A stretch of DNA of 64,000 nt from Escherichia coli (GTDB lineage: Bacteria; Pseudomonadota; Gammaproteobacteria; Enterobacterales; Enterobacteriaceae): assembly GCF_048403405.1 (NCBI RefSeq), contig NZ_CP183129.1. One strand, given 5' to 3'. The position numbers and the translations under genes are program-made. This document shows positions 37,039 to 40,157 of this stretch, in pieces. Below the pieces are notes generated by a model. It made no database searches, was not told the DNA's origin, and saw only the letters and a list, made by a program, of their open reading frames with translations. Numbering within the stretch: the first letter of the stretch is position 1; each line of letters opens with the position of its first letter.

Positions 37039-39017
<1,979 letters not shown>

Positions 39018-39019
<2 letters not shown>

Positions 39020-40157
39020 GTCAGAGCCCCTCGATCTCAATCAGTTAGCGCAAAAAATTAAACAGTGGGGGCTGGAACTGGGCTTTCAGCAGGTAGGTAT
39101 TACCGATACCGATCTCAGCGCGTCCGAGCCCAAACTGCAAGCATGGCTGGACAAACAATACCACGGCGAAATGGACTGGATGGCGCGTCACGGTATGCTG
39201 CGTGCTCGTCCTCACGAATTATTGCCCGGTACGCTGCGCGTGATCAGCGTGCGGATGAATTACCTTCCTGCTAACGCCGCATTTGCCAGCACGCTGAAAA
39301 ATCCCAAACTCGGCTATGTTAGCCGTTATGCGCTGGGCCGTGACTATCACAAGCTTCTGCGCAACCGACTCAAAAAGCTGGGCGAGATGATTCAGCAACA
39401 TTGTGTTTCGCTGAATTTTAGACCGTTTGTCGATTCTGCGCCTATTCTCGAGCGCCCGTTAGCTGAAAAAGCAGGACTTGGCTGGACAGGTAAGCACTCA
39501 CTTATCCTCAATCGCGAAGCCGGTTCGTTCTTCTTTTTAGGCGAATTGCTGGTCGATATTCCGCTGCCCGTGGATCAACCAGTCGAGGAAAGATGCGGTA
39601 AATGCGTGGCCTGTATGACGATTTGCCCGACCGGTGCCATCGTCGAGCCATATACCGTAGATGCTCGCCGCTGCATTTCTTATCTGACGATAGAACTGGA
39701 AGGGGCGATCCCGGAAGAGTTACGCCCGTTAATGGGAAACCGTATTTACGGTTGCGATGACTGCCAGCTTATCTGCCCGTGGAATCGCTATTCACAACTC
39801 ACTACAGAAGACGATTTCAGCCCGCGTAAGCCGCTACACGCACCGGAACTCATTGAGTTATTCGCCTGGAGCGAAGAGAAGTTTTTAAAAGTCACGGAAG
39901 GATCGGCGATTCGCCGTATAGGTCACCTGCGCTGGCTGCGTAATATCGCCGTGGCATTAGGCAATGCCCCCTGGGATGAAACGATTCTGGCGGCGCTGGA
40001 GAGTCGCAAAGGTGAGCACCCACTTCTTGATGAGCACATAGCGTGGGCGATTGCGCAGCAAATAGAGAGACGAAATGCGTGCATAGTCGAAGTGCAATTG
40101 CCGAAAAAACAGCGTCTGGTTCGGGTGATTGAAAAAGGGTTACCGCGTGACGCCTGA
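39018..40157 (+). CDS. queG: Epoxyqueuosine reductase QueG
   Basis: Track ORF from 38910; ATG at 39018 gives [16 protein letters not shown]..., 379 aa; two 4Fe-4S Cys clusters (CGKCVACMTICP, CDDCQLICP). Confidence 0.9.

Follow-up and report, generated by a model that had tools for sequence, protein, structure and literature searches.

The divergent genes nnr and queG of Escherichia coli begin at start codons that share two base pairs within a single CATG palindrome (Table 1). The best explanation of the data as a whole, which we hold to be probably correct, is that both of these overlapping starts are genuine, that the signals for the expression of each gene are embedded in its partner, and that the overlap is hard to undo. 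In the window (the whole 64,000-nucleotide stretch of DNA that was analysed), the palindrome consists of C39017, A39018, T39019 and G39020 in ggtccgtCATGtcagag, and positions 39010-39029 read ggtccgtCATGtcagagccc: the queG ATG occupies 39018-39020 on the plus strand, the nnr ATG is read on the minus strand from 39019 to 39017, and bases 39018 and 39019 are common to both codons. The two genes are neighbours on opposite strands and are transcribed divergently, which is the arrangement of a divergent excludon (see below). Palindromy beyond CATG, which could mark a regulator site, was not found: GTCATGTC is not self-complementary.

This geometry is not peculiar to one strain. A 701-bp query that takes in the CATG region has matches in 5425 of 5426 complete E. 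coli genomes; that of strain TUM14771 is 100% identical, and RefSeq/PGAP gives the identical 2-bp nnr/queG overlap there. In K-12 MG1655 (NC_000913.3), queG (b4166, yjeS) lies at 4392928..4394067 on the minus strand and nnr (b4167, yjeF) at 4394066..4395613 on the plus strand; this locus has the CATG and the 2-bp overlap (4394066-4394067) in common with the window, the N-terminal 150 residues of the proteins are 97-99% identical, and there is no difference of substance, the window being another E. coli strain. The overlap is a long-standing database fact: it is real, conserved, of a rare class, and was known before. The first-pass annotation of this DNA had named the genes nnr and queG and described start codons that overlap in CATG with two base pairs in common; the geometry is borne out by the sequence and by RefSeq, and the names by NCBIfam, TIGR00276 and Pfam matches.

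Both proteins score above the curated cutoffs of their families. Nnr reaches 1022.5 bits against the NCBIfam equivalog NF007856 (cutoff 703), with residues 1-509 aligned to positions 1-509 of a model of 510, and it contains the YjeF_N (PF03853, residues 40-199; epimerase) and Carb_kinase (PF01256, residues 257-496; dehydratase) domains; the Thermotoga maritima Nnr structure 2ax3 matches it with E = 6e-58. QueG reaches 510.7 bits against the equivalog TIGR00276 (cutoff 200), in an alignment that runs from residue 14, and it contains DUF1730 (PF08331) and Fer4_16 (PF13484, a double 4Fe-4S cluster domain); the Bacillus subtilis QueG structure 5d08 matches it with E = 3e-49, from E. coli residue 6 onwards.

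Table 1. Window coordinates of the genes, start codons and expression signals at the nnr/queG junction.
Feature	Position	Strand	Remarks
CATG palindrome	39017..39020	.	sequence; RefSeq annotation; seen in 30/30 aligned Enterobacterales
queG, tRNA epoxyqueuosine reductase	39018..40157	+	379 codons/aa
nnr, bifunctional NAD(P)HX epimerase/dehydratase	37472..39019	-	515 codons/aa
queG extended -10 element TGgTATACT (predicted promoter)	38978..38986	+	nnr codons 12-14
queG transcription start and 25-nt leader	38993..39017	+	end of the Conway overlap, K-12 v2 4392114, as tabulated in a later supplement
nnr Shine-Dalgarno GAGGGG (predicted)	39027..39032	-	7 nt 5' of the nnr ATG; queG codons Pro4-Leu5
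Distal nnr-operon -10 hexamer TAAAAT (predicted)	39415..39420	-	queG codons 133-135
nnr operon mRNA 5' leader, 387 nt	39020..39406	-	antisense to the first ~129 queG codons; start at ~39406, as tabulated in a later supplement
Region transcribed on both strands, 413 nt, dsRNA in vivo	38993..39406	.	published maps
Alternative in-frame nnr ATG (Met6, MKKNP...)	39002..39004	-	probably minor or unused in E. coli

The comparative evidence strongly supports both annotated starts as genuine, and on that evidence nnr/queG would count as a true head-to-head overlapping protein-coding pair. We took 80 loci surrounding queG orthologues, one genome per species; the survey of starts used the 29 Enterobacterales loci plus the window, i.e., 30 sequences (genera Escherichia, Citrobacter, Enterobacter, Kluyvera, Cedecea, Pantoea, Mixta, Serratia, Yersinia, Rahnella, Budvicia, Acerihabitans and Edwardsiella). 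In tblastn alignments, Nnr residue 1 ends one base past the start of QueG residue 1 in every one of the 30; the CATG geometry, being kept from Escherichia to Yersinia, Budvicia and Edwardsiella, is therefore more than a chance alignment of frames. All in-frame ATG, GTG and TTG codons were then enumerated from the upstream stop to codon 45. Codon 1 is ATG in 30/30 sequences for queG and again in 30/30 for nnr. Each of the other queG start positions occurs in at most 7/30, and in six species codon 1 is the sole queG candidate across the whole interval. For nnr, the only other conserved methionine is Met42, which is inside the LM(E/L)RAG helix of the YjeF_N domain. Shine-Dalgarno (SD) strength was scored as pairing energy to the 16S tail, for which arbitrary positions give a background mean of -2.0 and a 5th percentile of -6.2 kcal/mol: the values are -7.2 at nnr codon 1, -3.2 at nnr Met6 and -2.2 at the queG ATG.

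These data bear directly upon two ways in which the overlap might dissolve. One is that Nnr is made in E. coli from Met6 (39004-39002), such that the coding sequences lie 13 bp apart and the CATG overlap is an artefact of annotation by the longest ORF. An ATG at codon 6 is indeed present in E. coli and its close relatives, making dual initiation possible; the widely conserved YjeF_N domain does not include Nnr residues 1-16; in one metagenome-assembled genome (MAG L019) a 1-nt insertion leaves the Met6 equivalent as the only usable in-frame nnr start; and an experimental N-terminus of Nnr was not found in profiling and N-terminomic supplements (those of TRAINSPOTTER, INRI-seq and tetracycline profiling hold no entries for nnr/yjeF or queG/yjeS). 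We nevertheless judge this reading very unlikely. Just 15/30 sequences have a start codon at position 6 (the rest have Leu, Ile, Glu or Lys there), as against ATG at codon 1 in all 30, and the Met6 SD is the weaker of the two. Moreover, five species (loci L012, L017, L022, L026 and L031) offer codon 1 and Met42 as their only nnr candidates, changes of length within codons 1-12 are always multiples of three (e.g., +12 nt in L008), and the N-terminal MTDH residues are conserved. Separately, an upstream TTG at 39040 was considered as the nnr start, and is ruled out by conservation, by SD strength and by the mapped 5' end.

The other way is that queG starts elsewhere, either at an upstream GTG (38973 or 38910) or at a downstream codon. 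The E. coli frame is open for some 36 codons 5' of the queG ATG, and this ATG has no Shine-Dalgarno, its pairing being at the background level. Yet transcription, as mapped, starts at 38993, downstream of both GTGs, which are not conserved (at most 7/30), and in several species in-frame stops stand 2-7 codons upstream of the ATG. Downstream, there is no conserved start before codon 45, and the alignments with TIGR00276 and with the B. subtilis structure begin at residues 14 and 6. We regard a different queG start as extremely improbable.

Since no intergenic DNA separates the genes, every expression signal has to be written in the partner's coding sequence. On the queG side, nnr codons 12-14 (AGT ATA CCA, Ser-Ile-Pro) read TGGTATACT on the queG strand: TGgTATACT matches TATAAT at 5/6 positions and carries the TG of an extended -10 (TGn) sigma-70 motif. 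The 5' end of queG at 38993, as relayed in a later supplement, is 7 nt past the TATACT hexamer. There is no usable -35 for this promoter (TCGGCG stands at the 17-bp spacing), and a scan for consensus sigma-70 promoters and terminators returned nothing in 38500-39600 or 37400-38100; the scan requires both hexamers and is thus blind to an extended -10 promoter that has no -35, so its null result neither supports nor refutes this one. Codon choice in nnr is consistent with a constraint on the queG strand: codons 12 and 14 display zero synonymous variation, and codon 13, where it encodes Ile, is always the rare ATA. Among Enterobacterales loci, only the uncultured MAG L038 lacks TGnTAnnnT at a fixed offset before the queG ATG; elsewhere the last T of the motif falls at -32/-33, apart from L008 (-44, by a 12-nt in-frame insertion) and L036 (-35). 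The motif is also present in many Vibrionales and Alteromonadales. Overall, 56/78 loci have it within -60..-1, compared with ~5% expected per locus. It is kept, too, in five loci (Brenneria, Pectobacterium, Photorhabdus and Xenorhabdus) in which nnr no longer adjoins queG; because the motif outlives adjacency, the constraint appears to be that of a promoter and not that of the Nnr protein. A delta-PqueG strain has been constructed by Kasho and colleagues: its 31-bp deletion corresponds to 38958-38988 and takes out the extended -10, and the read-outs reported for it are limited to datA (PMC10950094).

The leader that follows is U-rich and unstructured (predicted fold, -3.0 kcal/mol). Two candidate elements within it were rejected by examining the split lineages, namely Brenneria, Pectobacterium, Photorhabdus and Xenorhabdus. 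The invariant TATGGTCCGTC block, which is nnr codons 1-4, had been considered as a ribosome-binding element for queG; it is gone from queG leaders where nnr has moved, and its conservation therefore belongs to nnr, as codons 1-4 and as part of that gene's initiation region. Likewise, an out-of-frame upstream AUG at 39008-39010 (the complement of the nnr His4 codon CAT) is lost in the split lineages, and we discount its relevance to queG.

On the nnr side, SD pairing at the start ranges from -4.5 to -12.2 kcal/mol across 30/30 species, and the signal leaves an imprint on queG: among 298 informative queG codons, just three (5, 6 and 8) lack synonymous variation, i.e., all 3/3 invariant codons in the 30 species fall within codons 1-8 (hypergeometric P = 4.6e-6). 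In nnr, 3/6 synonymously invariant codons are within the first 14 (P = 3.9e-5). Frozen sites among early codons may also mark a gene's own initiation region, and not all of them need be signals of the partner.

Further into queG, the predicted distal -10 of the nnr operon, TAAAAT, is the complement of AAT TTT AGA (Asn133-Phe134-Arg135), and forces the use of the rare Arg codon AGA; it is placed 9 nt 5' of the published 5' end of the nnr operon, as that end is tabulated second-hand. No -35 fits this element: TCGACA is just 7 bp off, and TAGGCG, at 18 bp, matches 3/6 positions. The hexamer is invariant in Enterobacteriaceae proper (the window, L003-L018 and L020), and is degraded to GAAAAT or GGAAAT in Erwiniaceae, Yersiniaceae and other families. 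Being conserved in Enterobacteriaceae alone, the proposed promoter is therefore younger than the start-codon overlap. The transcription unit that it would serve is elaborate: in Conway 2014, yjeF-to-rlmB is described as the most complex E. coli operon, with 14 genes, 8 promoters and 4 terminators. The corresponding plus-strand promoter (4391701) and terminator (4408049; both K-12 v2) are tabulated in the PMC7373196 supplement, and by those coordinates the terminator falls just past rlmB.

The first-pass annotation had predicted transcriptional interference or coupled regulation; antisense transcription across the junction, which such a prediction presupposes, is documented in four published data sets. 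K-12 v2 coordinates were transferred to the window by means of a sequenced duplex that maps exactly onto CATG. The PMC7373196 supplement tabulates a divergent overlap from Conway at 4391701-4392114 (413 nt) and a dsRNA locus from Lybecker, MS-212, at 4391717-4392100. The p19-captured dsRNA cluster S-361 (yjeS/yjeF, 5' overlap) spans 4391754-4392109 (Huang 2020, PMC7373196), and ranks in the top 20 protein-coding clusters by abundance in stationary phase; its 21-22-nt duplexes span the nnr SD and CATG, the CATG duplex being CAUGACGGACCAUACAAUGAAG / UCAUUGUAUGGUCCGUCAUGUC (PMC7373196). Finally, ExcludonFinder (2025, PMC12288877) calls queG-nnr as one of 16 divergent excludons of MG1655, and yjeV-queG-nnr as one of three noncontiguous operons. 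The exact 5' ends, 38993 and 39406, come from a single RNA-seq-based operon map, as quoted in the supplement of a later paper, and the accessible part of the Cappable-seq supplement contains no match at the nnr/queG 5'-end coordinates.

Considered together, these observations suggest the following scheme. Transcription of queG would begin at 38993 from a -35-less extended -10, TGgTATACT, that doubles as nnr Ser12-Ile13-Pro14, yielding an mRNA with a 25-nt U-rich leader that would be translated without a Shine-Dalgarno. Translation of nnr would depend upon the strong SD GAGGGG, which doubles as queG Pro4-Leu5; its mRNA would start ~387 nt upstream, within queG, from the -10 TAAAAT, with read-through from yjeV/glyVXY as a probable second source. 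Over ~413 nt that include both initiation regions the two mRNAs would then be complementary, and according to the published dsRNA data they pair in vivo and are cut by RNase III. We infer that the proposed -10 boxes and SD are functional, and pairing or polymerase collision may lower the expression of one or both genes. The earlier proposal that each gene's ribosome-binding site and promoter lie inside the other gene agrees with this arrangement on both sides of the junction: the nnr SD is in queG and the nnr-operon promoter is ~387 nt inside queG, while the 25-nt queG leader and the extended -10 are within nnr codons 1-14.

Several known systems help to place this junction. Divergent overlaps are the rarest class of gene overlap: they account for 331 of the 14,958 overlaps counted across 58 genomes, and E. 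coli has 2 among its 663 overlapping pairs; by contrast, 5' overlap is seen in 35% of divergent E. coli operons (Conway 2014), so overlap of transcripts is common whereas overlap of coding sequences is rare. The co-directional ATGA and TGATG start-stop overlaps are, like nnr/queG, very short, based on a start codon, and a form of genome compaction. They reside on one mRNA, however, where translation is coupled; the start codons in CATG are on opposite strands and separate mRNAs, which makes ribosomal coupling impossible. The classical divergent overlapping promoters of ilvY-ilvC and argECBH (cited in Conway 2014) likewise fire in opposite directions through each other's regulatory DNA, but they do so from a dedicated intergenic control region with a common regulator; nnr/queG lacks intergenic DNA altogether, and its junction yielded no regulator site. 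The closest likeness is to divergent excludons, of which Listeria mogR-fli is the paradigm: as published for nnr/queG, the 5' regions are complementary and form dsRNA that is processed by RNase III. Here, unlike in typical excludons, the overlap extends to the coding sequences, and the duplex contains both initiation regions. Reciprocal repression is the defining behaviour of excludons; nnr/queG is likened to them from its structure and its dsRNA.

The history of the junction can be followed outside Enterobacterales, where nnr and queG often remain divergent and very closely spaced. Tolumonas (L070) and a gammaproteobacterial MAG (L071) have the same CATG overlap; a 1-bp CAATG overlap (TTG/ATG) is seen in Bowmanella, Lacimicrobium and Neptunicella, and spacers of ~11-100 nt in Pseudoalteromonas, Aliidiomarina, Aeromonas and others; compact junctions of this breadth indicate that the embedding of a promoter in the partner gene is old. 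Separation has also occurred. In Pectobacterium there is a gene-sized insertion between nnr and queG, and in Brenneria 146 nt separate the two starts; the queG -10 box is kept in both. The Brenneria nnr keeps its own SD, GGGGGAG, and a MADQ N-terminus, and the split apparently arose when the shared segment was duplicated. Two codons that have bases in common cannot be parted by any insertion or deletion, and the overlap probably persists for that reason; the routes of escape are to duplicate the shared segment (as Brenneria apparently did) or to let a start codon migrate (as in MAG L019). The simplest account of the order-wide conservation is probably this mechanical one, in which the overlap persists because it is hard to undo.

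A more ambitious reading is that selection has kept the overlap as a reciprocal switch, a true excludon, in which pairing of the mRNAs and head-on polymerase traffic make expression of queG and of the nnr operon mutually exclusive, and so link queuosine maturation to expression of that operon. Abundant dsRNA covers the nnr SD and the two start codons in vivo, the excludon is called in at least 50% of 58 transcriptomes (PMC12288877), and the junction, conserved across the order, is also compact or overlapping elsewhere in Gammaproteobacteria. If the reading were true, the duplex would bury the nnr SD and both starts; a burst of queG transcription would silence nnr translation, and vice versa, and the 14-gene nnr-to-rlmB unit might become less stable at its 5' end, tying tRNA queuosine maturation to genes of tRNA modification and RNA metabolism (tsaE, miaA, hfq and rnr). 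Effects on mutL, miaA and hfq would nonetheless be buffered by the internal promoters of this unit. We think such a switch unlikely: the transcript and dsRNA studies considered here report neither anticorrelated expression nor a phenotype for the pair, 5' overlap alone is common among divergent operons, the distal nnr promoter that is the source of most of the overlap is conserved within Enterobacteriaceae only, and the pair has come apart in several lineages with no obvious loss. In addition, NAD(P)HX repair and epoxyqueuosine reduction are not known to be functionally connected. A simpler explanation for the conservation of CATG is that overlapping codons are difficult to separate, and that the CATG junction itself is a selected bidirectional switch, rather than a frozen accident, seems to us quite unlikely.

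The overlap as such restates reference annotation, and overlapping transcription at this locus has been published several times. Three details may be new: CATG is conserved across the order, the queG -10 outlives the overlap, and the nnr promoter is younger and family-specific. The locus offers a clean teaching example of gene compaction, in that a promoter, a ribosome-binding site and two starts all fit inside coding sequence, and the embedded signals leave measurable marks on codon choice: a rare ATA, a rare AGA and frozen synonymous sites. The comparative results also supply synonymous mutations, silent for the partner protein, that could be directed against either promoter, and make the excludon hypothesis for this pair directly testable.

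The leader of queG contains an out-of-frame upstream AUG, which is exactly complementary to the CAT codon for His4 of nnr; among species that retain His at this position, CAC is never used. The frame opened by this AUG comprises 17 codons and extends into queG. Because the upstream AUG is lost in those lineages in which nnr is not adjacent, we consider that it probably arises only as a consequence of what nnr encodes on the other strand. The length of the leader is evidently not strictly fixed: in Pseudescherichia vulneris, an in-frame gain of 12 nt in the nnr N-terminal tail (MTDHTLKSRLNNNRTTIPH) places the extended -10 box of queG at -44 instead of -32, and the leader is longer.

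Two patches deep within nnr also drew our attention, in that their synonymous sites are invariant or nearly so across the 30 Enterobacterales sequences. Both lie upstream of tsaE, at a distance of approximately 330-450 nt, and they could represent an internal promoter or processing site of the 8-promoter operon (the 14-gene nnr to rlmB unit); a search for a sigma-70 consensus match at these patches found none. The nnr and tsaE genes themselves overlap by a length that far exceeds the usual coupling overlaps of 1 or 4 nt, and the overlap is identical in K-12 (4395585-4395613).

Features of the nnr/queG region and of orthologous junctions (window or locus coordinates)
Feature	Sequence	Position	Strand	Description
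nnr internal patch 1	window	37931-37948	-	nnr codons 358-363; AACCTkCTGGCAATCAAT
nnr internal patch 2	window	37832-37843	-	nnr codons 393-396; GAyCGCTTAC, rare TTA Leu codon
nnr/tsaE overlap	window	37472-37500	-	co-directional, 29 nt
queG-leader upstream AUG	window	39008-39010	+	out of frame, 10 nt 5' of queG AUG
yjeV	window	40140-40193	-	17-codon ORF, downstream of queG
glyVXY	window	40427-40846	-	three tandem tRNA-Gly(GCC) genes, downstream of queG
nnr/queG junction, Pseudescherichia vulneris	L008	2441-2503		12-nt insertion
nnr/queG junction, Proteobacteria bacterium CTSoil_132	L019	2441-2503		soil MAG
Separated nnr/queG pair, Brenneria roseae	L028	2300-2510
Separated nnr/queG pair, Pectobacterium zantedeschiae	L030	1300-2500

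On its other side, the 3' end of queG overlaps yjeV convergently by 18 nt, and the yjeV/glyVXY stretch is the location of datA, a DnaA-inactivating locus (PMC10950094). Read-through from glyVXY/yjeV runs antisense across the whole of queG and on into nnr, which corresponds to the ‘noncontiguous operon’ of ExcludonFinder (PMC12288877). The GAGNETRTRDPDLGKVVLYQLSYSR translations that recur among the listed ORFs are an artefact of the tRNA repeats.

In the soil MAG, nnr carries a 1-nt insertion between its codons 4 and 6. The ATG of the CATG is thereby out of frame for nnr, and translation from it would meet a stop after 21 codons, so that nnr would need to initiate at the ATG equivalent to Met6, which lies 14 nt from queG. 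The insertion may be genuine, in which case the overlap has been escaped in nature, or it may stem from an error in the assembly. The pair is split altogether in Brenneria roseae, where the two start codons are 146 nt apart, and in Pectobacterium zantedeschiae, where the distance between them is approximately 1.2 kb and includes an open frame of 321 codons. In both, queG still has the CATG, the leader and TGGTAAAAT, and the Brenneria nnr has kept its own Shine-Dalgarno sequence and MADQ start. This pattern suggests that duplication of the shared segment was the route of escape from the overlap.
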